Made by a program: the position numbers and the translations under genes
Shown: piece after piece, positions 4,074-32,790 of the stretch
How positions within the stretch are numbered: the stretch's first letter is position 1
Layout of the letters: the number at the start of each line of letters is the position of its first letter
Notes under the pieces: model-generated
The model's input: only the letters and a program-made list of their open reading frames with translations
Told to the model about the DNA's origin: nothing
Databases searched by the model: none
From: a virus
Length of the DNA stretch: 64,000 nt
Direction: 5' to 3' (one strand)
IMG/VR virus record: IMGVR_UViG_3300028833_000003

Positions 4074-4373
4074 ATGAGCGATACTAAAAACACCTGTTCG
4101 CAGGATTGTTCTAAGACTTGTAAAAATTATTAGCCAGTTACTCCGTAGAAAGATAATTATGGATGGATTTGCGCGAAGTGTGGTCGTGGCATTGCGCCAA
4201 ATCAAATAACTTGTCCTTATTGCGGACCTACTTATACTTGGATTAGTACATCACCTTGGTGGAGCGGTCCATATTATACAACTACTAATGTTTCTAACAC
4301 TATTGATAAAGATAGTGTAACAGCAAGTGCGTCAAATATCACATTAAATGCTAATGCTACTACGCTAACTTGA
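4074..4373 (+). CDS. Zinc-ribbon protein (two in-frame TAGs: 4131, 4146)
   Basis: ATG follows GGAGGAAGAGAG. CAKCG...CPYCG ribbon. The frame is open to TGA at 4371 only if TAG is sense. Confidence 0.55.
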
Positions 4374-4398
4374 AAATTTTAAAAAAATTTGATATAAT
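4370..4398 (+). promoter_or_regulatory. Promoter cassette (TTGAAA-N17-TGaTATAAT)
   Basis: -35 at 4370-4375 and -10 at 4393-4398. Class B leader ATATATGTAAGATAAAGAAAAGGAG. Confidence 0.75.
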
Positions 4399-4430
4399 AT
4401 ATATGTAAGATAAAGAAAAGGAGAAATTAA

Positions 4431-4646
4431 ATGTATTATTACCTTGTAGATTTTCTTGATGAGGATTATAACGAGCATAAAGAATCTGGCCTAATTGGTG
4501 CTCAGTCTTATAGCACTGCTACTGCACAGGTTACTGATTTCTACGGTGAAGGTAATATTATTTCTCTTTATCTTGAACAGTGGAATGATGTTGTAACCGA
4601 GGATGAAGTTCTCGATGGCTTTGAAGAAGCCGATGTGAGGGTTTAA
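4431..4646 (+). CDS. Hypothetical acidic protein
   Basis: Track ORF. ATG lies 8 nt after AAGGAG. TAA stop sits inside a hairpin at 4635-4654. Confidence 0.6.
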   Translation: MYYYLVDFLDEDYNEHKESGLIGAQSYSTATAQVTDFYGEGNIISLYLEQWNDVVTEDEVLDGFEEADVRV

Positions 4647-4658
4647 TCCCTCACTTAT

Positions 4659-4742
4659 GCGGGTATGGTGGAATGGCAGACACCACAGACTTAAAATCTG
4701 TTGCCGCAAGGCGTGCCGGTTCAAGTCCGGCTACCCGCACCA
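4659..4742 (+). tRNA. tRNA-Leu(TAA)
   Basis: Type II tRNA. Acceptor GCGGGTA/TACCCGC, anticodon arm ACAGA-CTTAAAA-TCTGT, variable arm GCC-GCAA-GGC, A73, CCA encoded. Confidence 0.9.
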
Positions 4743-4814
4743 TTAAGGCTCACACAGCAAATTTTAATGCAATAGTATTGGTAAACTATAAGTGCAGGCG
4801 AGCCTTGTTTTTAT

Positions 4815-5092: not shown

Positions 5093-5566
5093 CCAGGGCA
5101 TGCCTGGTTTATATTGTCTAGCAACAAGGCAATCACACTGCAATGTTGTATGTAGGTAAATGATGGGGAGGAGTTAAAGGCGTCCTCTCTCTGGGGCAAT
5201 GCGGTAATACCTGCGCGCGGGTAGCAAAGTTACCCTACCAGTAGTTAGAAGTCTGTAAAACTTCCATTGGGCTGGCTGAGAGGCCCTGGTCCATCTTCCT
5301 TGCCAACAGTGATAGTCCTGTTTAAGGCAAAAAACATGCGGGTTAGCTAAACGCGATGATGGCTAGTTTTAGGGTTTTACGCCACGCTTTTAAGGACTTT
5401 GGCATTGATAAGCAAATTTGCTTGTCTATACTAGTTAATGCCGCAGTTCTAATTTGTCTGCACACTCGATTGGTAGTGTCCCACAAAAAAACTTGTTGAA
5501 GAGTGAAGTTGGTGGTTTTAGCTCTTAAAAAATATCTTATATGCGCTAAGATAAGGGCGCTTAATA
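5093..5566 (+). ncRNA. Candidate structured non-coding RNA (~470 nt) between the tRNA array and the next gene
   Basis: No credible ORF on either strand even with TAG read through. The track ORFs here run through tRNAs. The region is GC-enriched and hairpin-rich. It begins with CCAGG-GCATG-CCTGG. It shares ATGCGGTAAT and GCGCGC strings with 1-645. Confidence 0.4.
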
Positions 5567-5587
5567 GTGAAGGAGAGGAACTTAACT

Positions 5588-5902
5588 ATGAAATTTTTTT
5601 CTGAGGTAACGAATAGGGTTTATGATTCTGTTGATGCACTTAACGCCGCCGAAAAAAAGGTAGCCGATGAGAAGCGTGCTCGTGAGGAAGCCGAAGCTAA
5701 GAAAAAGGAAACTCGTGAAGCCCGCGCAAAGGAAGTTGAAGCTGCCCTTGAACTTGCTTCCAAGACTCGCTCAGATGCTTTGGAGAAGTTGAATGCTTTT
5801 GTGAAGGACTATGGTGCCTTCCATACTTCCATCAAGAATGTTGATTCACTGTTTGGATCAGAGCATGCATTGAGTACCCTGTTTGATCTGTTCAACTATT
5901 GA
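5588..5902 (+). CDS. Lys/Glu/Ala-rich coiled-coil protein
   Basis: ATG lies 9 nt after GAAGGAGAGG and is internal to track ORF 5567. It uses the AAG-rich codon regime. TGA stop, then a terminator. Confidence 0.6.
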   Translation: MKFFSEVTNRVYDSVDALNAAEKKVADEKRAREEAEAKKKETREARAKEVEAALELASKTRSDALEKLNAFVKDYGAFHTSIKNVDSLFGSEHALSTLFDLFNY

Positions 5903-5914
5903 TTAGATGCCTCT

Positions 5915-5939
5915 GGCGGCAGGCAAAAAGCCGCCTTTA
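5915..5939 (+). terminator. Rho-independent terminator-like hairpin
   Basis: GGCGGC-AGGCAAAAA-GCCGCC followed by TTTAT. Confidence 0.5.
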
Positions 5940-5942
5940 TAT

Positions 5943-6018
5943 GGGGATGTAGCTCAGTTGGTAGAGCGCCTGCCTTGCAAGCAGGAGGTAGAGGGTTCGA
6001 TCCCCTTCATCTCCACCA
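5943..6018 (+). tRNA. tRNA-Ala(TGC)
   Basis: Acceptor GGGGATG/CATCTCC with G3-U70, anticodon arm CCTGC-CTTGCAA-GCAGG, A73, CCA encoded. Confidence 0.9.
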
Positions 6019-6019
6019 G

Positions 6020-6136
6020 AAGACCTGTCAGCAATTATCTTTTTGCATTAGGAGCACGGGGTTCCAGGTTCGAATCCTGGGTCGGGGATTATTCCCCGGC
6101 TAGCTCAACTGGTAGAGCACGTTATTAGCGGGTCTT
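6020..6136 (+). ncRNA. Circularly permuted tRNA-like module (YrlA/Y-RNA-like candidate 1)
   Basis: Order of elements: closing helix AAGACC (6020-6025) with GGTCTT (6131-6136); T arm CCAGG-TTCGAAT-CCTGG (6064-6080); capped acceptor helix GTCGGGG (6081-6087), loop ATTATT, CCCCGGC (6094-6100); TA; D arm GCTC-AACTGGTA-GAGC (6103-6118). Confidence 0.5.
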
Positions 6137-6170
6137 GTATTTTAAAAGTATCAAAAGGAGAGGTTACACT

Positions 6171-6593
6171 ATGAGGAAAGTAATTAGTTTAATAATGGTG
6201 ATGCTTATGTTATTCTTGCCATTAACAAGTTAGGCATCTTGTGCATCCCCATCTGTCGAATCTTTGGTTTCATTTACACCTAAAATTAGCTGGCAATACG
6301 CCACAGAAGATAGTTTGTTTAGCAAATTTTATCCTGAGTGGGTAGATACATTCTTATTCAGGTCTGAGTGGAAAATTATAGACGCATTTGAAATTAGTCT
6401 GCAAGCACCGCATCGTCTTGTTACTATGTATTGGGCGGTAATGCCAGAGAATGTAAAAGATTTCGGTGTCTTGTTTGTGGGTAATAACCAGTTCATCTTG
6501 CGCTCTGCGTTTGTATATGATGAAACCCATCTTATGATTAATTTCACAAATGTATTACCTGGCGATTATCTTATGGTAATAGTTGCGCGATAA
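6171..6593 (+). CDS. Secreted protein with N-terminal signal peptide (one in-frame TAG at 6231)
   Basis: ATG lies 9 nt after AGGAGAGG. MRKVISLIMVMLMLFLPLTS-TAG-ASCASPS... It is in frame with track ORF 6264..6593 and ends in TAA. Confidence 0.6.
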
Positions 6594-6608
6594 TTTTCGC
6601 GCATAAAT

Positions 6609-6682
6609 GCGGCTATAGTATAGTGGTAATACGCGGCCTTGCCAAGGCTGAATCACGGGTTCAAATCCCGTTAGCCGCTCCA
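6609..6682 (+). tRNA. tRNA-Gly(GCC)
   Basis: Acceptor GCGGCTA/TAGCCGC, anticodon arm CGGCC-TTGCCAA-GGCTG, T arm ACGGG-TTCAAAT-CCCGT, U73, CCA encoded. Confidence 0.9.
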
Positions 6683-6686
6683 TTCA

Positions 6687-6719
6687 ATAGACCTGTTCAT
6701 ACAACAGGTCTATATTTTA
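6687..6719 (+). terminator. Strong hairpin followed by a T-run, inside the tRNA array
   Basis: ATAGACCTGTT-CATAC-AACAGGTCTAT, then ATTTTAT. Confidence 0.6.
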
Positions 6720-6720
6720 T

Positions 6721-6796
6721 GCGCGTGTAGCTCAGTCGGTAGAGCACGTGACTTTTAATCACGGCGTCGGGAGTTCGATCCTCCCCACGCGCACCA
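6721..6796 (+). tRNA. tRNA-Lys(TTT)
   Basis: Acceptor GCGCGTG/CACGCGC, anticodon arm CGTGA-CTTTTAA-TCACG, T arm GGGAG-TTCGATC-CTCCC, A73, CCA encoded. Confidence 0.9.
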
Positions 6797-6799
6797 TAT

Positions 6800-6874
6800 G
6801 GCTTGGTAGCTGAGACGGATTAGCAGCGGACTGAAAATCCGCATAGGTTGGATCGTTACCAACCCAAGCCACCA
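6800..6874 (+). tRNA. tRNA-Phe(GAA) with an unusual T loop (A54/U58)
   Basis: Acceptor GGCTTGG/CCAAGCC, anticodon arm GCGGA-CTGAAAA-TCCGC, T arm GTTGG-ATCGTTA-CCAAC, A73, CCA encoded. Confidence 0.85.
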
Positions 6875-6967
6875 GGGAGTCGGGAAGCTGTGTCATTAGT
6901 ATCACGTGCTACGGTGACAATGCAGTGAAACAATTGCGCATAATACCGAATAGAGACACTCCCACCA
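6875..6967 (+). ncRNA. Structured spacer RNA closed by an acceptor-like helix and ending in ACCA
   Basis: GGGAGT (6875-6880) pairs with ACTCCC (6958-6963), followed by ACCA (6964-6967). Internal hairpins are TGTCA...TGACA and GCAGT-GAAACA-ATTGC. No D or T arm consensus is present. Confidence 0.35.
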
Positions 6968-6995
6968 TTTTAAATAATCAATAGGAGGCCATTCT

Positions 6996-7205
6996 ATGAG
7001 TTTTAAAGACGCCTATAAAGCCATGCGTGAAGGTAAAGCTATTTCTAATACTGAGCATCCTGATGATCAGTGGGTTTGGAAGAATGACTAGATGATTTTC
7101 CAAAGTGGTGATGGCATTAGCTATCCGGTTAATGATATGCTATCTATTGAATATCTCCTCGATTAGATTGTACAAGATATTTGGTTTGTTGTAGAAGAAG
7201 AATAA
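6996..7205 (+). CDS. Small DUF2829-like protein (two in-frame TAGs: 7089, 7164)
   Basis: ATG lies 8 nt after AGGAGG. MSFKDAYKAMREGKAI...W...DIWFVV recalls the DUF2829 pattern (F..A...m..GK...W ... D.W). The family assignment is from memory only. Confidence 0.5.
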
Positions 7206-8714: not shown

Positions 8715-8807
8715 AGCCCCTTAGTTCAACGGTAGAACACCGGTCTCTAAAACCGTTATATCCCTCTGAAGGAGGTAGTCTGGGTTCGAATCCCAGAGGG
8801 GCCGCCA
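8715..8807 (+). tRNA. Amber-suppressor tRNA, anticodon CUA, with a long (23-nt) variable region
   Basis: Acceptor AGCCCCT/AGGGGCC (A1-C72 mismatch, then 6 bp), U8, D arm GTTC-AACGGTA-GAAC, anticodon stem CGGT/ACCG with loop CTCTAAA, variable region 8757-8779 with a CCTC/GAGG stem, T arm CTGGG-TTCGAAT-CCCAG, G73, CCA encoded. Confidence 0.8.
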
Positions 8808-8811
8808 ATCA

Positions 8812-8921
8812 TCGACACGTACAGCAAATATAAAGAGTAATCTTTATGTCATGGGTTCAACTCCCATCCTGCACACAGTGCATGTAGCTTAGTTGGTAGA
8901 GCGAAAGAATATAAGTGTCGA
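8812..8921 (+). ncRNA. Circularly permuted tRNA-like module (YrlA/Y-RNA-like candidate 2)
   Basis: Order of elements: closing helix TCGACAC (8812-8818) with GTGTCGA (8915-8921); hairpin ATAAAGA-GTAA-TCTTTAT; T arm ATGGG-TTCAACT-CCCAT (8851-8867); capped acceptor CCTGCAC (8868-8874), loop ACA, GTGCATG (8878-8884); TA; D arm GCTT-AGTTGGTA-GAGC (8887-8902). AAAGA (8904-8908) is complementary to TCTTT (8841-8845). Confidence 0.55.
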
Positions 8922-8932
8922 GTAAATTTTTA

Positions 8933-9025
8933 TAGACAGCATACTGCAATGAAATATTGGATAATATAACAGTTTTTATGCAACTATTATTAGAAGGTTC
9001 AAGTCCTTCGCTTATGCGCTGTCTA
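8933..9025 (+). ncRNA. Second structured module: bulged closing helix plus an orphan T arm
   Basis: TAGACAGCATA (8933-8943) pairs with TATGC-GC-GCTGTCTA (9013-9025) with a 2-nt bulge. T arm GAAGG-TTCAAGT-CCTTC lies at 8993-9009. There is an internal ATAATA/TATTAT hairpin. No D arm or anticodon arm is present. Confidence 0.4.
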
Positions 9026-9123
9026 GAATTTTATTAGGACATAATTAATCAACGCATTGTCCTTAAAATTGAATAAATATTAGGGTGTACATACCTAAAA
9101 TTTCCATGGAAAGGACGATGCTT

Positions 9124-9579: not shown

Positions 9580-9686
9580 TTGATTGATTAATGATAGGCT
9601 CCAACAGCAAGACAAGAAACACATTCATTTTTAACAAGAAAACGATAGGTGCTATAGGGAGCCTAGATTTTTATGAGGTATAAATA

Positions 9687-10277: not shown

Positions 10278-10541
10278 AGAGAGCATACTCTTAACCAATG
10301 TCGATTGCAGGTGGTATCGTTAAATCCACCCCAGGCGGACCAGAGGATAATGCAGACGTGCAAAAATGCCCCAAACCCAGTGCGGTTTGTCAGTCGTCAC
10401 AATCGGGACAAGCTGGTCTAAAGATGGAAAGCCGGCTCATTACAGCAATGTTAGCCAGAGTAGTATAAAAGGCAAGTACAGCGCAGATGACAATGCGAAG
10501 ATTTCGGTTCGACTCCGAACTAAAAATCCATCTTGAAATAT
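10278..10541 (+). ncRNA. Candidate structured non-coding RNA (~260 nt) between tRNA-Thr and tRNA-Ser
   Basis: No ORF. Helices: AAGAG/CTCTT, GGTGG-TATCGTTAAAT-CCACC, GACCAG (10339-10344) with CTGGTC (10413-10418), TTGTC/GACAA, AGATGGA (10422-10428) with TCCATCT (10526-10532), and a T-arm-like TTCGG-TTCGACT-CCGAA. Confidence 0.4.
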
Positions 10542-10667: not shown

Positions 10668-10696
10668 CAAATATAATGACCGAGGAGGATTTTAAT

Positions 10697-11338
10697 ATGA
10701 AAGTTCAACATGCTGTTGGTAATGCTGCCGCAATTGCAGCACTTCCTGTTACCCCAGGTAAAATTTATTTTTCTAAAGACACCAAAAAGATTTTCTTTGA
10801 TACTGCTGATGGTCGTATTGAAATCAACAGTGATGTAGTCGCACAAGTAGCTAATTTACTTGCTGCAGTAAATGTTTTAAATGGCGATGCTAATGTAGCA
10901 GGCTCAGTTGCTAATGTTGCAAATGCCGCTGCCGCACGTAAGGTCGCTGAAATTGTTGGCGATGCTGATGAAAATTTAGATACTCTTGAAGAAATCGCTA
11001 CTTGGATTAGTTCTGATGAAGGCGGAAAAGCTGCTGCCGCATTAGCTAGTCGCGTAGAGACTGTTGAAAATACTTTACAGGGCATGAGTGATCATGGTTC
11101 TCGTATTAGTGGTTTAGAGTCCTCAATGCAATTAGTTGTTACTAATAGCCAGTTGGCTAATTATGCTTTAAAAACTGATTTGAATGATTTAGTAACAAAT
11201 ACCGCATTGACCACTGCTCTTGCTGATTATGTACAAAATGCAGCTTTAGCTACCTATGCTACCAAAGCTGCACTTGATGCTTTGGATACTCGTGTTACTG
11301 CTCTTGAAACCGCTAATGATGAAGGTGCTGGTGCTTAA
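10697..11338 (+). CDS. Ala-rich coiled-coil fibre-like protein
   Basis: ATG lies 7 nt after GAGGAGGA and is internal to track ORF 10676. Heptad-like Ala/Leu/Asn-rich repeats. TAA overlaps the next ATG (TAATG). Confidence 0.6.
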   Translation: MKVQHAVGNAAAIAALPVTPGKIYFSKDTKKIFFDTADGRIEINSDVVAQVANLLAAVNVLNGDANVAGSVANVANAAAARKVAEIVGDADENLDTLEEIATWISSDEGGKAAAALASRVETVENTLQGMSDHGSRISGLESSMQLVVTNSQLANYALKTDLNDLVTNTALTTALADYVQNAALATYATKAALDALDTRVTALETANDEGAGA

Positions 11339-13607: not shown

Positions 13608-14884
13608 ATTATTCTTTACGAGAAAAACCTCGTAATTGGAAAGACGCAATTGGTTATACTCTATAGTTTGTATTTGCGGTCCTAACCGCAACTATTTTAA
13701 TCGCAACTATCTGCGGAACCAGCATCGCGGCAGGTCTCGTCGCAGCAGGTATCGGCACATTAACTTTTTTGTGTATCACAGGTTTTAAAGCGCCAATAGT
13801 GATTAGTAATAGCGGCGCTACGGTATCTGCGGTAGTAGGTGCATTAGCTCTATCTAGTGCAGTTGAAACTAATTTCGCTGGTGTTATTTTAGGTGGCGCG
13901 GTAATCGCAGTTATTTATGGAGCAGCAGCATTGGCAATTAAGAAATGGGGCATTCAATGGTTACAGAAGCTAATTCCGCCACTAATTTCGGGGACAACCA
14001 TATTAGTAATCGGTATTACATTGGCTGCATTTATTCCGACATACGCACTTGTGGGTGGCAGCTATTCGTTATGGGGCATCCTTATTGCGGGGATTACAGC
14101 AATAACCACAGTTCTGTGTATGCATTATGGGAAGAGCTTAGTCAAGACAATGCCTTTCTTAATTGGTTTGCTAGTAGGGTACATTGTCAGTTTTGTCCTA
14201 ACTTTAACAAATGTTGCTCCATTAGTCAACATGGACGCATTGAAGATTTCAAGTGTCTTTACTGTTCCCCAATTTGCCTTCTTGCAAACGAACTTCAATA
14301 CTTTCGATTGGTCAGCTCTACCGCAAATCATTCTCTCATTTGGAATGGTAGCACTTGCGGCAATGACTGAGCACATTGGAGATATGACGACTGCTTCTGC
14401 TGTAACTGGATATAATCTATTAGAAACTCCTGGTTTGCATCGCACATTACTTGGTGATGGCGTAGGTAGTTTAATGGGTACTATTGTTGGCGGATAGCCC
14501 AATACCACTTATAGTGAATATACTTCTACAATGGCAATTAGCGGAGTTTATAGCACTTGGTACACATTATATACTGCTATTGTTTTAATCGCACTTGGTT
14601 TTATTGCACCATTTAATGCTTTCTTAATGGCATTACCTAATGCGGTATTTGCTGGTGTATCAATAGTAGCATATGGTATGATTGCTCTTGCTGGTTTGCG
14701 CACTATTGTAAATGCAAATATTGATTTTAGCAATAGTAAAAATCAAATTATATTTGCGGCAATGGTAACAACCGGATTGAGTGGTTTAGCAATTACATAT
14801 GGAGCATTTAATTTAACAGGCATTGCGCTTGCAATGATTGTCGGTGTGCTATTGAATGTAATTTTAAAAAATAAGGGAGAGTAA
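13598..14884 (+). CDS. NCS2-family nucleobase (uracil/xanthine-type) permease (two in-frame TAGs: 13664, 14495)
   Basis: About 12 hydrophobic segments. Motifs include ...PNTTY.E......A..GVYS.W and TEHIGD. Track ORFs 13769 and 14531 are in one frame with ATG 13598, which follows GGGAGGAAGGG. TAG 13664 falls at the family Q of the QH motif. Confidence 0.85.
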
Positions 14885-14986: not shown

Positions 14987-16519
14987 ATGAGTGAATTTCT
15001 TAACAGCTTAAAGGTTGCTACTAACATGACCCATACGACTAATGGCGCTCTTACCTATAAGTCTACGCTTAACAAGGTGTATGATTTGTTCGCTCAGGGT
15101 GCGGCTATGCGTAATGGCGATGAATCTATGTGTCGTTCTTTGTTTATGTCTGCATATCATGAAAATCCTACGCTGGCATTAAAGTGTCTGTTCTATTTGC
15201 GTGATATTCGTGGCGGTCAAGGCGAGCGGCGCTTCTTCCGCATTGCTATTCGTTCACTGGCTCAGAAGTATCAAAAGGAAATGTCTAATCTGGTAAAGTA
15301 TATTCCTGAATTTGGTCGGTGGGATGACCTATATACTCTTGTAGATACCCCTCTGGAAAATGAAGCATTTGCTTTTATGAAGAAGCAGATTATGCTGGAC
15401 TTGGACAGCAAGACCCCTTCTTTGCTTGCTAAGTGGCTGAAGTCTGAGAATACCTCTTCTCAGGAGTCTGTGCGCTTGGCAACTAAGACTCGTCTGGCTT
15501 TCGGTCTGTCTGCGCGGCGTTATCGTAAGATGCTGTCTCTGCTTCGTAATCGTATTAACATCGTTGAAACTCTGATGTCTCAGAACCGCTGGGACGAGAT
15601 TGAGTTTGATAAGCTGCCTTCTCGGGCTGGTATTATTTATAAGAATGCATTCGCACGCCATGACATTACTAAGGCTCGTTATGAAGCATTTATTAAGGAT
15701 GAGAACACTAAGGTCAATACCGGAACTCTTTATCCTTATGATGTTGTTCATGAAGTATCTAAGTTGTGGAAGGGTTGGTATAACTATAAGCTGACTAAGG
15801 ACGTCAATGACGTTGAACGTTTGGCCATCAATAAGTATTGGGATAATCTGACCGATTATTTCAATGGTGCAACTCTGAACGCGCTGGCTGTTGTAGATAC
15901 CTCCGGTTCTATGACTAGTGGGTCTGGAAATATTGCTCCTATTGATGTCGCTATCGCTCTCGGTATGTATTGCGCTGACCGTGCGCAGGGACCTTTCCAT
16001 AATCACTTTGTTTCTTTCAGCCGCCGTCCTGAGTTGATTGAAATTGAGGGTGTGGATTTCTGCGAGAAGGTAAGCAATATCTATCGTCAGAACCTGTGTG
16101 AGAATACCAACATCGAAGCTACCTTTGATTTGCTTCTTAACACTGCAAAGCGCGCTCATCTGCGTCAGGATCAGCTTCCTCAGTCTCTGATTATCATCAG
16201 CGATATGCAGTTTGACCGGGCAACTGGCCGCTACTGTAATGATGATGAAATGGATGCATGGGCTAACACTTTGTTTGAAACTATTAATCAGCGCTGGGAA
16301 AATGCCGGATATGAGATGCCTCATCTTATCTTCTGGAACGTAAATGCTGCTTCTGGTGGCGGAAACATTCCTATGCGCGACAGTGGAAATGTTACTTACG
16401 TCAGCGGTGCTTCTCCTGTTATTCTGGAACAGGTGCTTACGGGCAAGACTGGCCAGGATGTCATGCTGGACAAGCTGATGTCTGAACGCTACGCTGTTAT
16501 CAAGTCTATTACTGAGTAA
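14987..16519 (+). CDS. DUF2828/TROVE-like protein with a C-terminal vWA domain (Ro60-related candidate)
   Basis: N-terminus T.NGALTY.ST.N...DLF......R........LF..AY.ENP.LALKCLFYLRDIRGGQGERR.F matches the remembered DUF2828 pattern. VDTSGSM is a vWA MIDAS-type motif. No TAG. AAG/CGT/CTG codon regime. Confidence 0.7.
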   Translation: MSEFLNSLKVATNMTHTTNGALTYKSTLNKVYDLFAQGAAMRNGDESMCRSLFMSAYHENPTLALKCLFYLRDIRGGQGERRFFRIAIRSLAQKYQKEMSNLVKYIPEFGRWDDLYTLVDTPLENEAFAFMKKQIMLDLDSKTPSLLAKWLKSENTSSQESVRLATKTRLAFGLSARRYRKMLSLLRNRINIVETLMSQNRWDEIEFDKLPSRAGIIYKNAFARHDITKARYEAFIKDENTKVNTGTLYPYDVVHEVSKLWKGWYNYKLTKDVNDVERLAINKYWDNLTDYFNGATLNALAVVDTSGSMTSGSGNIAPIDVAIALGMYCADRAQGPFHNHFVSFSRRPELIEIEGVDFCEKVSNIYRQNLCENTNIEATFDLLLNTAKRAHLRQDQLPQSLIIISDMQFDRATGRYCNDDEMDAWANTLFETINQRWENAGYEMPHLIFWNVNAASGGGNIPMRDSGNVTYVSGASPVILEQVLTGKTGQDVMLDKLMSERYAVIKSITE

Positions 16520-16598: not shown

Positions 16599-16805
16599 AT
16601 GAAAGAGTTTGAATTTTTGCCAAAGCAAATTTTCCTTGAATGGTATGAAACAAATCGTATTAAACCTGGTAAATATTATTGGGTTGTAGAAGAAGAAGAT
16701 GGGTGGCAACGTCAATTGCGTTATCCCATTATGAATTATCGTCCAGATTTGGCAGCGGCTGCCACGAATCCTCAATATATAGGAGTGAATTATTATGCTC
16801 TTTAA
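16599..16805 (+). CDS. Hypothetical protein
   Basis: ATG lies 8 nt after AAGGAAGG and is internal to track ORF 16590. TAA stop. Confidence 0.5.
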   Translation: MKEFEFLPKQIFLEWYETNRIKPGKYYWVVEEEDGWQRQLRYPIMNYRPDLAAAATNPQYIGVNYYAL

Positions 16806-17598
16806 TAAAACGCAGGAACAAAAACAGAAAATTCTTGACAAGGTTCAAAATCATCATTATTTCGTCGAAAATTATTTGCCAGATGAAGTAATTTTTACAG
16901 CACTAATTGGTAGTCAAAATTATAATTTAGATACTGAGAATAGTGATATTGACACTATTACATTTATTTTGCCGTCTTTATCTTCCTTTTATACAACAGA
17001 ACAATTAATTTCAAAAGAATATGAACTTGAAGATGGCAAAGCAGTAATTAAAGATATTCGTTTATTTTTTAAGCTTTTGCGCAAAAGTTCGCCCAATAGT
17101 ATTGAATGGATTTGCAGCCATTATATGTATATTAATCCAACATATGAAACTGTTATTGAGCGGATGCGCAATGATTGCAATCTATTAAGCAGCTGCGATA
17201 TACTCAATATGCTACATGCAATTGCTGGCACCGCAACACAGTTACATGGTAGAAATATGACTATTGGTAAGCGTTTCTCACATGTTTTACGTTTAGATGA
17301 TATGATGTACACTTATACAGTTAATTTTGAAAATGGCGATTTCTTAGCGCTGCGGCCTGGCGATATGCGCATGGCATTAGATGCAAAAACTGGTCATTGT
17401 AATTTAACTGATGATGAAATCAAAAGTGAATGTGATAAATTAACCACAAAGATTAATCAAGAAGTTACTGATTATCATTTAACTTCTATCGACATTAATC
17501 GCATGGCGCTTGCGCGAGCACTTTTAAAATTTCATGAAAGACGCTTATTTGAGACTTACTTGCATACCCAGGGATTTGAAAAAATTAAAAAAATTTGA
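16795..17598 (+). CDS. RlaP-like (RNA-ligase-associated Pol-beta-fold) nucleotidyltransferase
   Basis: ALIGSQNYNLDTENSDIDTITF is the GS..Y......SD.D nucleotidyltransferase signature. It overlaps the upstream gene by 11 nt and follows GGAG. No TAG. Confidence 0.65.
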   Translation: MLFNKTQEQKQKILDKVQNHHYFVENYLPDEVIFTALIGSQNYNLDTENSDIDTITFILPSLSSFYTTEQLISKEYELEDGKAVIKDIRLFFKLLRKSSPNSIEWICSHYMYINPTYETVIERMRNDCNLLSSCDILNMLHAIAGTATQLHGRNMTIGKRFSHVLRLDDMMYTYTVNFENGDFLALRPGDMRMALDAKTGHCNLTDDEIKSECDKLTTKINQEVTDYHLTSIDINRMALARALLKFHERRLFETYLHTQGFEKIKKI

Positions 17599-18608: not shown

Positions 18609-20012
18609 ATGGCATATTGTGGATATGTAGTTAAGGTAGAACATCTTCGTAAGCATACCAATGCGGACCGTCTGCAAATTGCTACTTTTTTTGGTAATGA
18701 TACTATTGTTGGTATGAACACTCAGTACGGTGATATTGGTGTTTATTTCCCTGTTGATGGTCAGTTATCTGAGCGCTTTTGTGAGGTAAATGACCTTGTG
18801 CGCCGCAAGGATGAAAACGGTAAGCAGGTTGGCGGTTATCTTGACCCTGATAAGCGTAACATAAAGGCCTTGAAGCTGCGTGGTGAAAAGTCTGATGGTC
18901 TTTATCTGCCTATTACTTGTTTAGCTGACTTCTGCAAGATTTCTGATTTGAAGGTTGGTGACACTATTGATACTGTCAATGGTGAGCTGATTTGCCAGAA
19001 GTACATTCCTCATTCTAATGCTCGCACTCATGCTGGCGGTGCGAAGGGTGTAAAGAAGGTCAAGGCCAACATCGCACCTACTTTCTATGAACATGTTGAT
19101 ACTGCTCAGTTGGCTTATAACCTCAACGCTTTTAAGCCTGGTGATACTGTTCAGCTGACCTTGAAGATGCATGGCACTTCTGGTCGTACTGGGTATCTAC
19201 CTCTGGTACATGTAAAGCAAACTTGGTTTGATAAGTTGTTCCATCGTCCTGGCAAGGAATATAAGGAGTATGGTTATATTACTGGCACTCGTCGTGTAGT
19301 CCTGGATGGGAAGCGCACTGGTGGTTTCTATGACTCTGATGATTTCCGTGAAGCTATGGCTGCCAAGTTCGATGGTAAGCTCCGTAAGGGCGAAGTTGCC
19401 TATTATGAAATCGTTGGATTCCAGGGACCTAATGGTGCTCCTATTATGAGCCAGGTTCAGAACTCTAAGGTAAAGGACCCTGAATTTACTAAGCAGTATG
19501 GTTCAGTAACTACTTTCTCTTATGGTTGTGAGCAAGATGGTGGCTATGAAGCTAAGAGCATCCTTGATCCTGGCGTAGAATTTAACAAGGCTCCTTGCTG
19601 TGAAGTGTATGTCTATCGTATGACTATGGTCAATGAAGATGGTGATGTAGTAGAATATTCTCCTGCTCAGATTAAGGAGCGTTGTGAGCAGATGGGTATT
19701 CATACTGTAATGGAATTTGAAACCTTCATAATTCCTGATATGATTCAGCTACCTGACGATGTTGGGTCTTTACAGGCGGTCGATGCTGGCGAATATGTTC
19801 TTCGTAAGGTTGAGCAGTATTTCGATGGTCCTGACCCTATCGGTAAGACCCATGTGCGCGAAGGAGTAGTTGCTCGTATCCTTAACCGTACTAACTTCGC
19901 AGTTTATAAGCACAAGAACTTCTCTTTCAAGGTGTTGGAAGGCATTGCCAAGGATGAAGCTACCGCGCCTGACATTGAAGAGGCTCAGGAAATAATGGAA
20001 GATGGAGTTTAA
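18609..20012 (+). CDS. RNA ligase (Rnl2/Rnl5-like nucleotidyltransferase) with an N-terminal tRNA-binding-type OB domain
   Basis: N-terminus VVKVEHLRKHTNADRLQI resembles the hPNADkL tRNA-binding OB motif. TLKMHGTSG fits the ligase motif I (K.HG). No TAG. All ten Lys codons in the first ~100 codons are AAG. Confidence 0.7.
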   Translation: MAYCGYVVKVEHLRKHTNADRLQIATFFGNDTIVGMNTQYGDIGVYFPVDGQLSERFCEVNDLVRRKDENGKQVGGYLDPDKRNIKALKLRGEKSDGLYLPITCLADFCKISDLKVGDTIDTVNGELICQKYIPHSNARTHAGGAKGVKKVKANIAPTFYEHVDTAQLAYNLNAFKPGDTVQLTLKMHGTSGRTGYLPLVHVKQTWFDKLFHRPGKEYKEYGYITGTRRVVLDGKRTGGFYDSDDFREAMAAKFDGKLRKGEVAYYEIVGFQGPNGAPIMSQVQNSKVKDPEFTKQYGSVTTFSYGCEQDGGYEAKSILDPGVEFNKAPCCEVYVYRMTMVNEDGDVVEYSPAQIKERCEQMGIHTVMEFETFIIPDMIQLPDDVGSLQAVDAGEYVLRKVEQYFDGPDPIGKTHVREGVVARILNRTNFAVYKHKNFSFKVLEGIAKDEATAPDIEEAQEIMEDGV

Positions 20013-24008: not shown

Positions 24009-24387
24009 ACAAATTGTATGGCATGGAGAATTGGCGCACCTAATGGAAAATATGAAAGCCAATGACCATAAGGTATATGTATATTCAGAAGTATATGAAG
24101 ATTATGTATCTAGTTTTGAAAGTATGCCGCACTCTGAGGATATATTAAAATATTATTATGATTTACATTTTATTCCACAAAGAACAAATACAACAGATGA
24201 TATACGTTGTTTTGTAAATACATATTGTCCAGACAATGTATTAATTGTTGTATATAGTTTAGCAGAATTTAATTACCTCAATCGACTATTTAGCAATGAT
24301 GAATTAATTCCTTATACAGATCCGCGTATATATGATTGGCCCATAGATAAAATTTTGTTAGACGTTAATAACAGATTTGGGGGCTAA
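23977..24387 (+). CDS. Hypothetical protein (start uncertain)
   Basis: Track ORF 23923..24387. In-frame ATGs lie at 23977 and 23989 and both have weak RBSs. Confidence 0.45.
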   Translation: MYLIMTPSAFKQIVWHGELAHLMENMKANDHKVYVYSEVYEDYVSSFESMPHSEDILKYYYDLHFIPQRTNTTDDIRCFVNTYCPDNVLIVVYSLAEFNYLNRLFSNDELIPYTDPRIYDWPIDKILLDVNNRFGG

Positions 24388-24395
24388 AATTTGAA

Positions 24396-24427
24396 AAGTC
24401 AAGTAGGGAGATACTTGACTTTTTTTT
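24396..24427 (+). terminator. Rho-independent terminator
   Basis: AAGTCAAGTA-GGGAGA-TACTTGACTT followed by a T-run. Confidence 0.85.
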
Positions 24428-24443
24428 ATTTTTATGTTATAAT
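24415..24443 (+). promoter_or_regulatory. Promoter (TTGACT-N17-TGtTATAAT)
   Basis: The -35 (24415-24420) is formed by the terminator's 3' arm. -10 at 24438-24443. Confidence 0.7.
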
Positions 24444-24468
24444 ATAAATGTGAAAGGATGAAAAGAGT

Positions 24469-24678
24469 ATGAGTAATTTAGAAAAAGTTGAATTTACGTG
24501 TCCAGAATGTGGCACACAATGGACAGAATGGCAAGACCCAAGTGATGATTGGTTTAAACTGGCTACCAATCAAACTTTATGCGCAAACTGTGGCAAAGAA
24601 GTAATGAAACGGATTATCGACAAAATGGAGGATTCAGATAATGAAGTTTTATCTAGCTGGCCCCGTAATCACGGATAA
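24469..24678 (+). CDS. Zinc-ribbon protein
   Basis: Track ORF. CPEC...CANC. Confidence 0.5.
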   Translation: MSNLEKVEFTCPECGTQWTEWQDPSDDWFKLATNQTLCANCGKEVMKRIIDKMEDSDNEVLSSWPRNHG

Positions 24679-25183
24679 TAAAGAAATTAAACAACAGATG
24701 GAAAAATTAGAAAAAGCCATCTATTGTATGAGATTGCCAGCCATTAATCCCGGCGAATGTGATATGCGCGATGATTATCCCGAGGTTTATAGACCTGGCA
24801 AGCATAAAGTACCAAATGCCTGGGGCATTGATATGGCGACTTGGGGTCAATGTGTATTTACAATGGACGTGGTTGCCATTGATGAATGTGATTGGATGGT
24901 ACTCGCGGACTATGGACGACAGGCCACAGCCGGCACTAGCTGGGAAGCAGGATATGCGTTCGCCAAAGGAGTAAAAATCCTTGTTGTGCAGATGCCGGGC
25001 GTAAAAGAAAGTAGTCTTATGACGCAAGGCTGCGCTGCGAATATCTGTAAATATGAAGACTTTATTAGTGGTCTTGACTGCGATGAAGATAATTGGCGTG
25101 AATGGGATACAATTTGGGATGCTAAATTCAACCAGTTTTTCTTTGAGCGCGGTCGTGTGAAAAAAGAAATAACGCTAAACTGA
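24641..25183 (+). CDS. Nucleoside 2-deoxyribosyltransferase-like protein (second copy of the fold)
   Basis: MKFYLAGPV ... DWMVLADYG....AGTSWEAGYAFAKGVKILVV. Confidence 0.6.
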   Translation: MKFYLAGPVITDNKEIKQQMEKLEKAIYCMRLPAINPGECDMRDDYPEVYRPGKHKVPNAWGIDMATWGQCVFTMDVVAIDECDWMVLADYGRQATAGTSWEAGYAFAKGVKILVVQMPGVKESSLMTQGCAANICKYEDFISGLDCDEDNWREWDTIWDAKFNQFFFERGRVKKEITLN

Positions 25184-25195
25184 GGAGATAATTAA

Positions 25196-27100
25196 GTGAG
25201 TATTCATTTAGATTATGGTGTAAAAGATATAAAAACACTGGAAGGGATGGAAGCAATTCGTACCAGACCTGGTATGTATATTGGTTCTGTTGGCCCAGAA
25301 GGTGTTTGGCAAATTACATTGGAAATTATTTCTAATGCAATAGATGAATATCTGGTTGGTGCATGTGATAATATCGCTGTTACTATTGAGCCGCCATATG
25401 TAACCATCAGTGATAATGGCCGTGGCGTTCCTTTTGGTAAAAATGCTGATGGCGAAGAAGTATTAATTAATATTTATACAAAACTACATACTGGCGCTAA
25501 ATTTGATAGTGATGGTAATACTGGTTATAATACTTCTGGCGGTATGAACGGCGTTGGCGCGAAAGCTACTAACGCACTATCTTCCTTTTTTAGAGTAGAT
25601 AGTTTCCGTGATGGGAAACATGCACATGCTATTTTTAAGCAAGGACAACTTCAAGAGTATAAAGTAGAACCATATGATGGAAAGGGTCATGGCACTAATG
25701 TGCGGTTTATCCCAGATGATAGCATTTTTACAGAAGGTATTGATTGCGACGTAACTCGCCTTCGTAAGCAACTTTGGGAACTCGCATATTTGTCTCCCGG
25801 TCTTCATTTTGCTCTCACCGTTGATGGGAAATGTGAGCAAATTGAGAGCAAAAATGGTCTTCTTGATTATCTGGACGTCTTAACTCAAAATCATAATAAA
25901 TTAACCCAATCCTTTTCCGCAGAAACACAGCAAGATAGGATGCGGGTGCGGTTGGCATTGGTATATACTGATACATATAGTGATACGTATAAGCTCTTTA
26001 CCAATAGTATCCCAAATACATCTGGTACGCATTTGACTGGTTTCCGTACCGCACTTACGCAAACAATCAATAAGTTTGCGCGTGCAAAGGGATTGCTAAA
26101 AGAAAAAGAAGATAATTTCACATCTGATGATTTAAAGGAAGGTTTAACGCTTATCCTTTCTTTAACAATGCCTGACCCAATATTTAGTGGGCAGACCAAA
26201 GATGTATTGACATCTGCGGAAGGCAGAACAATAGTTCAAAGTCTGTGCGCGAGTGAGTTAAATAATTGGTTCGCACAGAATGAAAAAGATGCGAAGGCTA
26301 TTGTTAATAAAGCATTACTAGCACGTAAAGCAAGAGAGAGCGCACGCAAAGCAAAGGAAAATACTCGTAACGCTGCAGTTAAGAACACAAGAATTACATT
26401 ACCTGGTAAATTGGCAGATTGTAGCTCTAAAAATCGTAGCAGTTGTGAAGTATTTATTGTAGAGGGCGATAGCGCGGCTGGTAGTGCGAAAGAAGCGCGT
26501 GATCGCAACACTCAGGCAATTCTGCCAATCCGTGGTAAAATTCTAAATGTATTAAAAGCGGATTTAAACAAAGCTATGAGCAATGAAGAAATCAAGAGTA
26601 TGATAGTTGGATTTGGTCTGCAAGTGCAGGGCAATAAAATTATTCTTGATGAATCAAAACTCCGTTATGGTAAAATTATTATTATGGCCGATGCTGATGT
26701 GGATGGCGACCATATTAGATGTTTGTTTTTGACTTTCATTTGGAAGTTTTGTCCAGAACTTATTACCAAGGGATATATCTATGCCGCAGTGCCCCCATTG
26801 TTTAGAATTATCAAAGGCAAAGAATCATTTTATATTAAAGATGAAGCGGCATTGGCTGAGTATCAAAATAAAAATGCGTCAAGTAAATATCAAGTAAAAC
26901 GTTTTAAAGGCTTAGGCGAAATGCCAGTAGAAGATTTGGAAGAATCTACTATGTCTATCCAAAACCGCACTTTAAAACAAATTACAATGAGTGATGTGCT
27001 GGGCGCAGCAGCTATGTTTAATAATCTGATGGGAGAGAGCAGCATTGCAAGAAAGAAATTCATCGAAGAAAACGCTGAACGGGCACAGCTTGATATATAA
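25196..27100 (+). CDS. Type IIA DNA topoisomerase, ATPase/Toprim subunit (GyrB/ParE-like)
   Basis: GHKL ATPase motifs (LEIISNAIDE, DNGRGVP, GGMNGVGA), Toprim EGDSA and PLRGKILNV-like IRGKILNV. GTG start follows GAGGAG. Confidence 0.9.
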   Translation: MSIHLDYGVKDIKTLEGMEAIRTRPGMYIGSVGPEGVWQITLEIISNAIDEYLVGACDNIAVTIEPPYVTISDNGRGVPFGKNADGEEVLINIYTKLHTGAKFDSDGNTGYNTSGGMNGVGAKATNALSSFFRVDSFRDGKHAHAIFKQGQLQEYKVEPYDGKGHGTNVRFIPDDSIFTEGIDCDVTRLRKQLWELAYLSPGLHFALTVDGKCEQIESKNGLLDYLDVLTQNHNKLTQSFSAETQQDRMRVRLALVYTDTYSDTYKLFTNSIPNTSGTHLTGFRTALTQTINKFARAKGLLKEKEDNFTSDDLKEGLTLILSLTMPDPIFSGQTKDVLTSAEGRTIVQSLCASELNNWFAQNEKDAKAIVNKALLARKARESARKAKENTRNAAVKNTRITLPGKLADCSSKNRSSCEVFIVEGDSAAGSAKEARDRNTQAILPIRGKILNVLKADLNKAMSNEEIKSMIVGFGLQVQGNKIILDESKLRYGKIIIMADADVDGDHIRCLFLTFIWKFCPELITKGYIYAAVPPLFRIIKGKESFYIKDEAALAEYQNKNASSKYQVKRFKGLGEMPVEDLEESTMSIQNRTLKQITMSDVLGAAAMFNNLMGESSIARKKFIEENAERAQLDI

Positions 27101-30685: not shown

Positions 30686-30772
30686 AAATAAATATTAATT
30701 ATAGGAACCCATATTGGGATTATAATCAAATTACATTAGAAAACATAATGTCTGATAAATGGTTAATAAAGG

Positions 30773-31936
30773 ATGAGTAAAATGCTTTGTATTGAACCTA
30801 TGAAAATCAATAAAATCCCAGAAGGTAAAGAAGATCTTCTACCATCTATTTGTGCATCTGGTGAATATTTTGCACAAATTAAAAAGGATGGCTATTGGTA
30901 TCAATTTGAAAAACAAGAAGGCGTGGCTTATCTTTGGAGTCGCACAACTTCAAAAGTAACAGGAACACTTGCTGAAAAAGGCGCCAATGTTCCTCATATT
31001 ATGGAGATTCTCGCGCCGCTTCCAGCTGGCACAGTTATTATTGGTGAAATCTATTATCCTGGTAAAGAATCAAAAGATGTAACACCAATAATGGGAGCAT
31101 TACCTGAGAAAGCGGTTGAACGGCAGCAAGGTGAATATGGTCCATTACATTATTATATTCACGATATGATTTATTATAATGGACGTAATCTTATGGATGT
31201 CGGTGCGGCAGTGCGCTATGATTTACTTAAAAAGGTTTATGAAAAATATCGTCTTGGCGATTTTGAAGTAAATGATGAGCAGATTATTGAATTAGCAGAG
31301 CGCTTTGATGATGATATTTTAAATAAAATTAATGAAGTGCTTGCCGCGGGTGAAGAAGGTATGGTTCTTAAAAAGAAGACTGCCCCATATACGCCTGGTA
31401 AGCGACCTGCATGGGATACAATTAAAGTTAAAAAGACCGATGGTTGTGATGCCATTCTTATGGGCTTTAATGCGCCAACAGTAGTATATGATGGAAAATT
31501 GGACATTGGAGAAAATTATACTGGCGCAGATGCTGATAATTGGTCTTATTGGGCAACGTTTGAATTGACAAATGCTGATACAACAAAATTGATTGAGCGT
31601 AAGCCTATTGGTGACAGGTCTATTGAATTAGAAGAAAAACAAGTAATTTATCCTGTTACAAAAGCATTTTACTATGGATGGCCAACAGCAATTAAGATTG
31701 GTGCATATGATAAGGATAATAAAGTTGTACAAATTGGCACCGTATCTTCCGGCTTAACCGAAGAATTAATGCAAGATTTTGTGCAACATCCATTTAAATA
31801 TCTTAATACTGTTGTAGAATTGCGCGGAATGGAAAAACATAATGAAGACCACACACTGCGGCACTTCTATTTTAAAGGTTTCCGTGATGATAAAGATCCA
31901 ACTGAATGTACTATTGATTCAATTTTTGGAGGTTAA
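30773..31936 (+). CDS. ATP-dependent DNA ligase
   Basis: Motif I AQIKKDGYW (K.DG), EGMVLKK, and a C-terminal OB-like region. Confidence 0.8.
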   Translation: MSKMLCIEPMKINKIPEGKEDLLPSICASGEYFAQIKKDGYWYQFEKQEGVAYLWSRTTSKVTGTLAEKGANVPHIMEILAPLPAGTVIIGEIYYPGKESKDVTPIMGALPEKAVERQQGEYGPLHYYIHDMIYYNGRNLMDVGAAVRYDLLKKVYEKYRLGDFEVNDEQIIELAERFDDDILNKINEVLAAGEEGMVLKKKTAPYTPGKRPAWDTIKVKKTDGCDAILMGFNAPTVVYDGKLDIGENYTGADADNWSYWATFELTNADTTKLIERKPIGDRSIELEEKQVIYPVTKAFYYGWPTAIKIGAYDKDNKVVQIGTVSSGLTEELMQDFVQHPFKYLNTVVELRGMEKHNEDHTLRHFYFKGFRDDKDPTECTIDSIFGG

Positions 31937-31937
31937 G

Positions 31938-32102
31938 ATGTATATTATTGTATGGCAGGATGAATTTGAGCATATAATTATTGATACCCATGCTCCTGTC
32001 TTTGATGATTATTATCTCGCAGTTGATTATGTTTCACGCAAAAATGAAAAATTTGCCGAATCATCTTATTATCACAAGCGTTGGATTTATGAGGTCAAAT
32101 AA
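31938..32102 (+). CDS. Hypothetical small protein
   Basis: ATG lies 6 nt after GGAGG and is internal to track ORF 31842. Confidence 0.45.
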   Translation: MYIIVWQDEFEHIIIDTHAPVFDDYYLAVDYVSRKNEKFAESSYYHKRWIYEVK

Positions 32103-32109
32103 AAAATAA

Positions 32110-32138
32110 TTGACTTTATAAAAAATTTTTGATATAAT
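32110..32138 (+). promoter_or_regulatory. Promoter cassette (TTGACT-N17-TGaTATAAT)
   Basis: -35 at 32110-32115 and -10 at 32133-32138. Leader ATATATGAAGATAAGGAAAGG. Confidence 0.75.
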
Positions 32139-32171
32139 ATATATGAAGATAAGGAAAGGAAGAAAAAAATC

Positions 32172-32372
32172 GTGACTAAGAAACAACGCAAGCGCTTGGC
32201 ACAACAGTTGGCTGAACTTGAACATATCATCCAGACTAGTGAAGATCGAAACGCAGTAAGAGATGCGCAAGAGCGTATGATGCAAATGCAAGAGGCCGCA
32301 GATATGAATACGGAAGATATGTGCGCGGTTGATGAAATGGTCCAGGATATTTTACAAACCTTGACTTATTAA
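32172..32372 (+). CDS. Hypothetical acidic protein (GTG start)
   Basis: Track ORF, downstream of GGAAAGGAAG. Confidence 0.45.
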   Translation: MTKKQRKRLAQQLAELEHIIQTSEDRNAVRDAQERMMQMQEAADMNTEDMCAVDEMVQDILQTLTY

Positions 32373-32773: not shown

Positions 32774-32790
32774 TTTAGTGTAATTAGTTA

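Follow-up and report, generated by a model that had tools for sequence, protein, structure and literature searches.

A small RNA built like a tRNA turned inside out in a phage tRNA array, and its candidate partnership with a predicted Ro60-fold protein

The 64,000-nt stretch of viral DNA analysed here (IMG/VR record IMGVR_UViG_3300028833_000003, hereafter the window) carries a tRNA array in which ARAGORN called 25 tRNAs and Rfam 24 between positions 646 and 10630, and in this cluster a small structured RNA of about 117 nt, predicted from sequence, lies on the plus strand at 6020-6137 (module 1), where neither program called a tRNA. Directly upstream is a tRNA-Ala(UGC) gene with an encoded CCA (5943-6018, plus strand; ARAGORN, Rfam tRNA 73.4 bits); module 1 starts 2 nt past this CCA, and 3' maturation of the tRNA-Ala would define its 5' end. 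Downstream on the same strand, the gene at 14987-16519 encodes a protein with the domains DUF2828 and DUF7788 (Pfam; PHROG 850, 'RNA-binding protein'), which is a putative partner of the RNA. We found that module 1 is a real, conserved small RNA with the architecture of a tRNA turned inside out, and that it belongs to a family marked by a signature helix and motif and linked to DUF2828 genes.

Read from the 5' end, module 1 opens with one strand of a closing helix, AAGACCUGU (6020-6028), which bears the (W)AGRC part of the family signature and pairs with 6128-6136 in the minimum free energy (MFE) fold, and beside it stands CAGCAA (6029-6034), a near-invariant single-stranded motif of the family whose C-A-G-C-(A)-A columns are invariant in our alignment A3. 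Next come a 5' linker, UUAUCUUUUUGCAUUAGGA (6035-6053), whose sequence is conserved in the subtype orthologues L081, L078, L105 and L184 and whose UUGC can pair with GCAA of the motif in the MFE fold, the 3' strand of an anticodon-stem analogue, GCACG (6054-6058), and a variable-loop analogue, GGGUU (6059-6063), in which U6063 is tRNA position 48. The T arm (6064-6080: CCAGG 6064-6068, TTCGAAT 6069-6075, CCTGG 6076-6080), which is recognised in the sequence, in the core of the Rfam YrlA model and in the MFE fold, runs into a loop-capped acceptor analogue of 7 bp with one G-U pair, T6082-G6099 (GTCGGGG 6081-6087, loop ATTATT 6088-6093, CCCCGGC 6094-6100). UA (TA in the DNA, 6101-6102; tRNA positions 8-9) separates it from the D arm (GCTC 6103-6106, AACTGGTA 6107-6114, GAGC 6115-6118; as RNA, GCUC-AACUGGUA-GAGC), and an A26 analogue, the 5' strand of the anticodon-stem analogue, CGUUA (6120-6124), and a 3-nt linker (together 6119-6127) lead to the 3' strand of the closing helix, GCGGGUCUU (6128-6137), which rests on the MFE fold and on covariation and includes a conserved terminal G. 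The initial annotation of the window had given this layout (T arm, capped acceptor, TA, D arm, paired ends) with coordinates that proved correct to the base, and the pairing that it saw between AAGACC (6020-6025) and GGTCTT (6131-6136) is confirmed as part of a helix that has in fact 9 bp (6020-6028 with 6128-6136), two of them G-U, followed by G6137. Likewise, its description of the architecture, with the 3' half of a tRNA first, the acceptor capped and a terminal helix in place of the anticodon side, holds in both the MFE fold and the covariation. Indeed, the MFE fold of 6016-6140 (RNAfold) consists of exactly these helices (-49 kcal/mol, z = -4.0; 0 of 200 shuffles as stable), and the tertiary Levitt pair is U6063:A6108 (A15:U48), with G15:C48 in a second such element of the window, module 2.

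No ordinary tRNA was called at 6020-6137 by ARAGORN or Rfam, on either half, and at gathering thresholds Rfam reported tRNAs only in the whole window. A purpose-built scanner pattern (T arm, capped 7-bp helix and D arm, both strands) found two sites in the window on the plus strand (6064-6118 and 8851-8902) and none on the minus strand, with 0.04 sites expected by chance per mononucleotide-shuffled window. Megablast of 5500-7000 against GenBank phages gave matches to tRNA pieces only, and an exact 21-mer from module 1 had 0 matches in IMG/VR, so that no near-identical relative is present there. A scan for promoters and terminators found no such site at module 1, and we rejected a DNA-level signal; the strand specificity, the G-U pairs and the long-range covariation speak for an element that acts as RNA.

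For comparison we used 80 IMG/VR loci with DUF2828 relatives (50-67% protein identity to the 14987 protein); L followed by a number labels a comparison locus. Outside tRNAs, the scanner layout occurs about 60 times in these 80 loci, on the strand of the gene in all but two cases, and the acceptor sequences of these sites are wholly different yet complementary. By extending the sites outward we found the family signature: a closing helix, 5'-(W)AGRCNNNN / NNNNGYCU(W)G-3', whose 5' strand runs straight into unpaired (A)CAGCAA. The signature was counted 214 times on the gene strand vs 4 times on the opposite strand in 1.48 Mb, and 107 times vs 0 when a perfect 7-bp closing helix was demanded; the two bases after the closing helix were UG or AG in 94 of these 107 cases. 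On A3, a sequence-only MAFFT alignment of 23 family members, the five-helix structure was paired in 94.6% of cells vs 68% with shuffled partners and 31-44% with slid partners, and 27 of 30 pairs showed compensatory changes. Both helices on which the inside-out layout was proposed to depend covary across the relatives, the capped acceptor at 7/7 pairs on A3 and the closing helix at 7/9 pairs in A3 and 9/9 in alignment A4, while the T arm was 100% paired (4/5 pairs covary) and the D stem covaried at 4/4 pairs. The anticodon-stem analogue (5 nt upstream of the variable loop with 5 nt after the D arm), which played no part in choosing the A3 sequences, was 94.7% paired and covaried at 5/5 pairs, with a score of 4.65 out of 5 vs 2.53 with sequences permuted. 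The Levitt 15:48 pair also covaries (48:15 is C:G in 12, U:A in 8, A:U in 1 and other in 2 of the 23 sequences).

The covariance model R1, built from A3, gave, in 1.55 Mb, 69 matches at E<=1e-4; every one lies on the gene strand, and they are 93.3% paired vs 60.7% with shuffled partners. Among the evidence from outside its training set is the orthologue of module 1 at L081 3078-3200, in a phage whose protein is 70% identical, which scored 53 bits; it differs from module 1 at four T-stem pairs, all seven acceptor pairs (six of the seven on both sides) and one D-stem pair, and keeps the 5' linker as CAGCAAUU.UCUUUUGCAU.AGGAGCACG. In most tRNA-like members two pairing partners are available to the strand 5' of the variable loop, the strand after the D arm and, in a local hairpin, an upstream copy of that strand, and both alternative pairings exceed all 2000 permutations, which suggests that two mutually exclusive folds, both covarying, are maintained. 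As an example, UCUUU is complementary to both AAAGA copies (A3 columns 18-41 and 110-114; 8830-8847 and 8904-8908 in module 2).

At least seven elements with the signature exist in the window, all on the plus strand inside the tRNA array and with different interiors. Besides module 1, the full tRNA-like member is module 2 (8812-8922; closing helix UCGACAC/GUGUCGA, ACAGCAA; T arm 8851-8867, capped acceptor 8868-8884, D arm 8887-8902), which reaches 97.1 bits with R1 and 32.4 bits with Rfam YrlA across the full model length, and has an orthologue at L084 2757-2869. The element at 2690-2780 (AGACACG...CGUGUCU-AG, CAGCAA) encloses a T-arm-like hairpin only, and that at 8933-9026 (UAGACAGC...GCUGUCUA-G, with the variant motif CUGCAA) a T arm only (8993-9009). 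Two are short: 4745-4807 (AAGGCUC...GAGCCUU-G, ACAGCAA; R1 29.2 bits), which lies between two tRNA-Leu genes and has no tRNA-like arms, and 9595-9666 (UAGGCUCC...GGAGCCUA-G, ACAGCAA; R1 24.4 bits). A probable member flush with a tRNA-Ser lies at 10421-10535 (AAGAUGGA...UCCAUCUU-G, ACAGCAA 10442-10448, T arm 10503-10519); it is less certain because of a longer spacer before the motif, and it contains a partial Rfam tRNA match at 10459-10521. We rejected 8880-9018 as a tRNA with a 66-nt insert (Rfam tRNA 18.9 bits), because its downstream T arm belongs to the separate element 8933-9026. Between tRNA-Gly and tRNA-Lys, a hairpin at 6687-6713 (UAGACCUGUU-CAUAC-AACAGGUCUA, then AUUUUAU), flagged as terminator-like, has the AGAC/GUCU helix without CAGCAA and may be a minimal or degenerate relative.

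In the relatives, too, the signature closes interiors of several kinds: short, T arm only, T arm with acceptor and D arm, and whole tRNA. In some members, which have a capped acceptor, the D arm is followed by a full canonical anticodon arm (loops CUGAUAA, CUUAAAA, CUGUUAA); each of them amounts to an entire tRNA whose circular permutation point falls between the anticodon and variable arms (among them L043 313-438, L008 4630-4755, L017 3369-3495 and L009 1090-1215). Others are unpermuted, with the ordinary tRNA order and a hairpin GYCUU-loop-AAGRC plus ACAGCAA in the place of the anticodon loop (L078 7259-7376, L105 165-262, L184 12423-12520, L043 ~765-895, L097 ~330-460); their acceptor is open, ending in L105 with an encoded ACCA, and several lie directly upstream of the DUF2828 gene. 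When rotated, the unpermuted RNA of L078 aligned with module 1 at 93/128 identical columns, against 62/166 unrotated; therefore, module 1 is a circular permutation of an RNA that exists unpermuted in a related phage. The acceptor cap starts with GCCA or ACCA in L017 2506-2566, L022 3364-3422, L039 8812-8870, L065 9867-9926 and L069 9864-9922, which resembles a discriminator base and CCA placed within the loop and would accord with maturation to a 3' end like that of a tRNA.

The protein encoded at 14987-16519 is predicted to have a Ro60-like fold. Its AlphaFold2 model (predicted local distance difference test score 80.5, predicted template modelling score 0.73) is a ring of helical repeats with a C-terminal von Willebrand factor A (vWA) domain, and the top nine Foldseek matches in PDB were Xenopus and human Ro60, D. 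radiodurans Rsr and the phage protein phiRo60, over the full length (530-590 aligned columns, template modelling (TM) scores 0.42-0.55, E down to 6e-8), with vWA domains next in the ranking and the phiRo60 structure 9kop as the third-best structural match. The protein had been called TROVE-like in the initial annotation, and this is borne out for the predicted fold and not for the sequence, where Pfam found DUF2828 and DUF7788 only. Downstream on the plus strand are an RlaP-type nucleotidyltransferase (16795-17598; Pfam PF10127) and an RNA ligase of the PHA02142/Rnl type (18609-20012; weak Pfam match, PHROG 968 'RNA ligase' 3.8e-66), both of which are conserved neighbours in the relatives along with Band_7, KTI12/AAA_33 kinase, Metallophos and also DUF5662 genes. 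A context of RNA-repair genes has been described for Ro/TROVE systems (PMC7824862).

The linkage between the RNA family and DUF2828 genes was found from both directions. Starting from the protein, the signature was present on the gene strand in 49 of the 51 DUF2828 loci having at least 8 kb upstream (mean 4.2 copies), with 231 copies upstream vs 16 downstream and a higher density toward the gene. Starting from the RNA, a pattern scan of IMG/VR gave 120 short stretches, of which 29 also encode a DUF2828 homologue (26-56% identity); in each of the 32 RNA-gene pairs both lie on the same strand, and 9 RNAs began 147-370 nt upstream of the gene. The same DNA pattern in bacterial and archaeal genomes gave mostly chance matches, with the closing helix in 6 of 120, and seven stretches with a DUF2828 gene, which adjoined the match where positions were compared. 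As a baseline for the 29 of 120 IMG/VR stretches, DUF2828 'RNA-binding' proteins are encoded in 702 of 50,697 GenBank phage records (1.4%), including Felix O1-like coliphages, Listeria phages A511 and P100, Tsamsa-like Bacillus phages and many mycobacteriophages, and R1 finds members of the RNA family in Tsamsa, Felixounavirus Alf5 and mycobacteriophage Tyson. The candidate RNAs are located in Tyson at about 40,354-40,477 (MT771349.1), in Alf5 at about 24,380-25,215 (NC_031082.1), in JohannRWettstein (Bas63) at 82690-82911 (MZ501086.1) and in Tsamsa, where there are four, within the 1.8 kb upstream of gp247. Tyson carries its RNA immediately 3' of a gene annotated 'Ro-like RNA binding protein', without a tRNA array in the vicinity. 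Conservation of the Felixounavirus elements extends over 244 records, that of Bas63 among them, and the elements are unannotated or lie under 'hypothetical protein' calls. One such call is BIZ90_gp133 of Alf5 (NC_031082.1 24989-25312, minus strand; L206 14321-14644), a 'hypothetical protein' antisense over two signature RNAs that begin at L206 14334 and 14420 between tRNA-Asp and tRNA-Lys, and this coding sequence is probably spurious. By signature or R1, no family member was found in the phage T5 tRNA region (25 tRNAs, a stretch without DUF2828).

Previous studies described YrlA RNAs, to which bacterial and mycobacteriophage Ro60/Rsr proteins bind, as having a tRNA-mimic layout and lying near Ro60 genes on the same strand (PMC4201824), and YrlA (RF02553) was the only Rfam family that matched the layout of module 1 beyond the tRNA calls, below threshold. 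Module 1 shares with YrlA the order variable region, T arm, capped acceptor analogue and D arm, and with that of M. smegmatis, which is cut by RNase P and CCA-tailed (PMC4201824), the 7-bp acceptor. The family shares further an anticodon side that runs into a stem of the 5' and 3' ends, the covarying 15:48 pair, a position on the same strand as and usually upstream of a gene for a Ro60-fold protein, and several different Y-like RNAs per locus (compare YrlA and YrlB). However, module 1 scores 35.7 bits against a gathering threshold of 69, with only the tRNA-like core aligned (model positions 23-88 of 114), and none of six related or GenBank loci (L206-L209, L081, L084) held a YrlA match at threshold. 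In place of the GNCGAAN0-1G motif of YrlA the family conserves the AAGRC/GYCUUG helix and ACAGCAA; 6016-6063 contains no CGAA, and the only CGAA of module 1 is in the T loop. The YrlA partner is a TROVE protein, whereas here it would be a DUF2828+DUF7788 protein, and the family differs also in being embedded in phage tRNA arrays in up to seven or more copies and in having unpermuted relatives and relatives with complete anticodon arms. Thus the YrlA-type assignment made at the outset stands for the layout, the 15:48 pair and the terminal stem, and fails for the threshold and the GNCGAA motif; by analogy, module 1 would be a YrlA-type Y RNA in its working without being a member of the YrlA family. 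The tRNA-mimic layout is known from Y RNAs, and the signature family is in no database list; the signature was not described in the literature searched, a comparison that leaves aside the supplementary list of 22 phage YrlA RNAs in Chen et al. 2014.

Other known systems resemble module 1 in part. The phiRo60 protein of Thermus phage phiLo binds two upstream Y-like RNAs and the host PNPase (PMC12135203), and this system (Yrl1/Yrl2; PDB 9KOP, 9L5Y) shares a phage Ro60-fold protein with Y-like RNAs encoded upstream, but Yrl1 and Yrl2 are defined by a stem-bulge-stem shape and a CGAA motif rather than by a tRNA-like domain or CAGCAA (PMC12135203), and a tRNA array context is not described for them. 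The Ro60-like gp130 of Bas63, encoded beside tRNA genes, is reported to counter the Ppl defence, and in that study a few of the 'tRNAs' around it were conjectured to be Y RNAs (PMC11482910). Circularly permuted tRNA genes of the Cyanidioschyzon merolae type and two-piece tmRNA likewise encode the 3' half before the 5' half. Unlike the former, module 1 has no anticodon loop or credible anticodon, and its junction is the most conserved part of the family and not a discarded spacer; unlike the latter, it has no tag reading frame, and Rfam tmRNA_permuted (RF04321) gave 19.4 bits against a threshold of 47 in a match that spans tRNA-Ala and spacer, while ARAGORN found no tmRNA. The RNA1, RNA2, RNAI and RNAIII of phage T5 (NC_005859.1) are of about 100-145 nt, lie between tRNA genes, are processed with them and have in part been called tRNA-like, but show no sequence or covariance-model similarity and no signature, in a stretch without DUF2828. 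The T5 record annotates at 30284-33949 (L335) 'stable RNAs with unknown functions', so such RNAs have long been seen.

Building on the structure, conservation, signature and genomic linkage of the RNAs and on the predicted fold of the protein, we consider it probable (roughly 60%) that the signature RNAs and the Ro60-fold DUF2828 protein form a partnership, a phage version of Y RNA and Ro. Module 1 itself is a tRNA body (T arm, D arm, anticodon-stem analogue and 5-nt variable loop) in which a loop closes off the acceptor end and a terminal helix, made by the two ends of the RNA, takes the place of the anticodon loop. We infer that it is transcribed with the tRNA array and freed by tRNA-end processing. 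The signature module would then be the docking site for the ring of the 14987-16519 protein, by analogy with the conserved Y RNA stem for Ro60/Rsr, and the variable interior, here a tRNA mimic, would be the adaptor or decoy end, which could display the particle to enzymes that recognise tRNAs, to nucleases or to the RNA-repair enzymes encoded alongside, or protect the RNA. Given an acceptor analogue of 7 bp, cleavage of the cap by RNase P and addition of CCA, as in M. smegmatis YrlA, are plausible and would yield a two-piece RNA. The biological role would probably lie in RNA quality control, RNA repair or counter-defence during infection.

Several observations speak against this partnership. 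The protein is related to Ro60 at the level of fold only (TM ~0.53, 10-16% identity), and phmmer against PDB finds no Ro60. The signature is unlike the Ro-binding motifs of known Y RNAs (GGUCCGA, GNCGAA). In module 1 itself only 3/5 pairs of the anticodon-stem analogue form. Listeria phage A511 has a DUF2828 gene and no signature, so the association is not universal, and since RNA and gene both lie in or beside tRNA arrays, part of the linkage could be indirect. Module 1 is moreover 8.9 kb from the 14987 gene, beyond the 4 kb used to define YrlA; many copies in relatives lie 0.15-2 kb from the DUF2828 gene. Of the link between module 1 and the 14987 protein first suggested for this window, the shared strand, the predicted Ro60 fold and the signature at 49/51 loci are in favour, the distance is not, and binding is a prediction.

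We also entertain, tentatively and as a lesser possibility, a modular phage system of Y-like RNAs in which a common docking module is combined with heads that can be exchanged (no head, a lone T arm, a capped tRNA body, a complete tRNA with anticodon loop, or an unpermuted form with an open CCA acceptor) and that the ring might use as guides or baits. The heads could mimic tRNAs broken or intact at the anticodon loop, thereby steering RNA-repair enzymes or blocking anticodon nucleases or other defences; the local 5' hairpin and the anticodon-stem analogue might be the two states of a switch, inactive and tRNA-shaped; and cleavage of the cap might give two-piece molecules, possibly chargeable.

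A part of the same evidence would fit a free-standing decoy or sponge, a tRNA look-alike, neither chargeable nor decodable, that without any part played by the Ro-like protein titrates host defence nucleases directed at tRNAs or proteins that modify or sense tRNAs. The faithful tRNA fold including the 15:48 pair, the relatives with canonical loops (CUGAUAA, CUUAAAA, CUGUUAA) and a neighbourhood that encodes RNA-repair enzymes of the kind that answer anticodon nucleases (PMC7824862) all agree with it, but the invariant signature in short members without a tRNA-like part (4745-4807, 9595-9666) and the tight same-strand linkage to the DUF2828 gene are left unexplained. We regard it as unlikely on its own; it is compatible with the partnership and not exclusive of it.

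The elements usually sit flush against the tRNAs on either side, with the T arm about 40 nt past the preceding tRNA, the following tRNA about 28 nt past the D arm and a short A/U-rich leader behind the element. This position would suit a processing or punctuation element of the tRNA operon, with no role alongside the Ro-like protein, whose helix and CAGCAA are recognised by a host or phage RNase or protect or insulate tRNA precursors and whose tRNA-like interior merely recruits RNase P; the bare AGAC/GUCU hairpin at 6687-6713 can be counted in its favour. Yet the Tyson RNA stands beside a Ro-like gene with no tRNAs near, many of the RNAs are 150-370 nt upstream of the gene, the tRNA array of T5 contains no member, and elaborate covarying tRNA tertiary features would be superfluous for a cleavage signal. 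We rank this explanation, with a rather low probability, behind that of the free-standing decoy.

It is quite improbable that module 1 is a circularly permuted tRNA gene as in Cyanidioschyzon, whose ends would be ligated by the neighbouring RNA ligase and whose cap would be opened by RNase P and 3' trimming to give a functional tRNA. The 3' half does precede the 5' half, artificially rotated modules 1 and 2 give an ARAGORN cloverleaf with an 'intron' at 33/34, some relatives start the acceptor cap with GCCA or ACCA, and RNA ligase, kinase and phosphatase genes are nearby. Against this, the 'intron' would hold the most conserved sequence of the RNA, there are short members without any tRNA parts, and the unpermuted relatives would need removal of a 60-70-nt insert that is not a group I intron, with an anticodon stem still poor. 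The anticodons implied across the family are erratic and often have A34, which is rare in bacteria. For module 1 itself we rejected a functional spliced or permuted tRNA, as it has no anticodon loop, a 3-bp anticodon-stem analogue and, across its family, such erratic anticodons.

Chance juxtaposition, or decay of two tRNA genes in tandem that left a T arm from the first and a D arm from the second, might be thought of in a dense tRNA array, the more so as dimeric tRNAs are a known source of false positives for YrlA models (PMC4201824) and gave one with R1 (Tsamsa, 10675-10770), but two decayed tRNAs are excluded by the conservation, the strand specificity and the compensatory changes through which orthologues hold the structure, and the two acceptor strands pair with each other and covary, the closing helix and anticodon-stem analogue span the whole unit and covary, neither half is called as a tRNA and the layout is expected 0.04 times per shuffled window.

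DUF2828 proteins had no defined RNA partner, and the signature together with the structure provides a searchable description of candidate partners, including candidate Y-like RNAs that hide in tRNA arrays, either unannotated or under spurious 'hypothetical protein' calls. For Bas63 gp130, direct deletion or pull-down of the candidate RNAs is now feasible. Further, the existence of permuted and unpermuted versions of one RNA would offer a natural experiment on tRNA bodies recruited as protein adaptors.

The window shows other features. At 8715-8807 there is a 93-nt tRNA with the anticodon CUA (ARAGORN 'Pyl'), and in-frame TAG codons occur at 14495-14497, where the codon splits a xanthine/uracil-permease gene (13769-14884) within a conserved GG*PNTTYSE stretch, and at 6231-6233, where it joins a signal-peptide-like start (6171-6233, with a ribosome-binding site just past module 1) to an in-frame open reading frame (6264-6593). 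These observations suggest amber suppression or recoding in this phage. Inside the array, 5165-5295 gave a full-length match to the Rfam cow-rumen-3 RNA (42 bits, below the threshold of 86.7), and L081 carries at 4076-4660 a strong ROOL RNA (320 bits) in its tRNA array, about 1 kb downstream of the orthologue of module 1.

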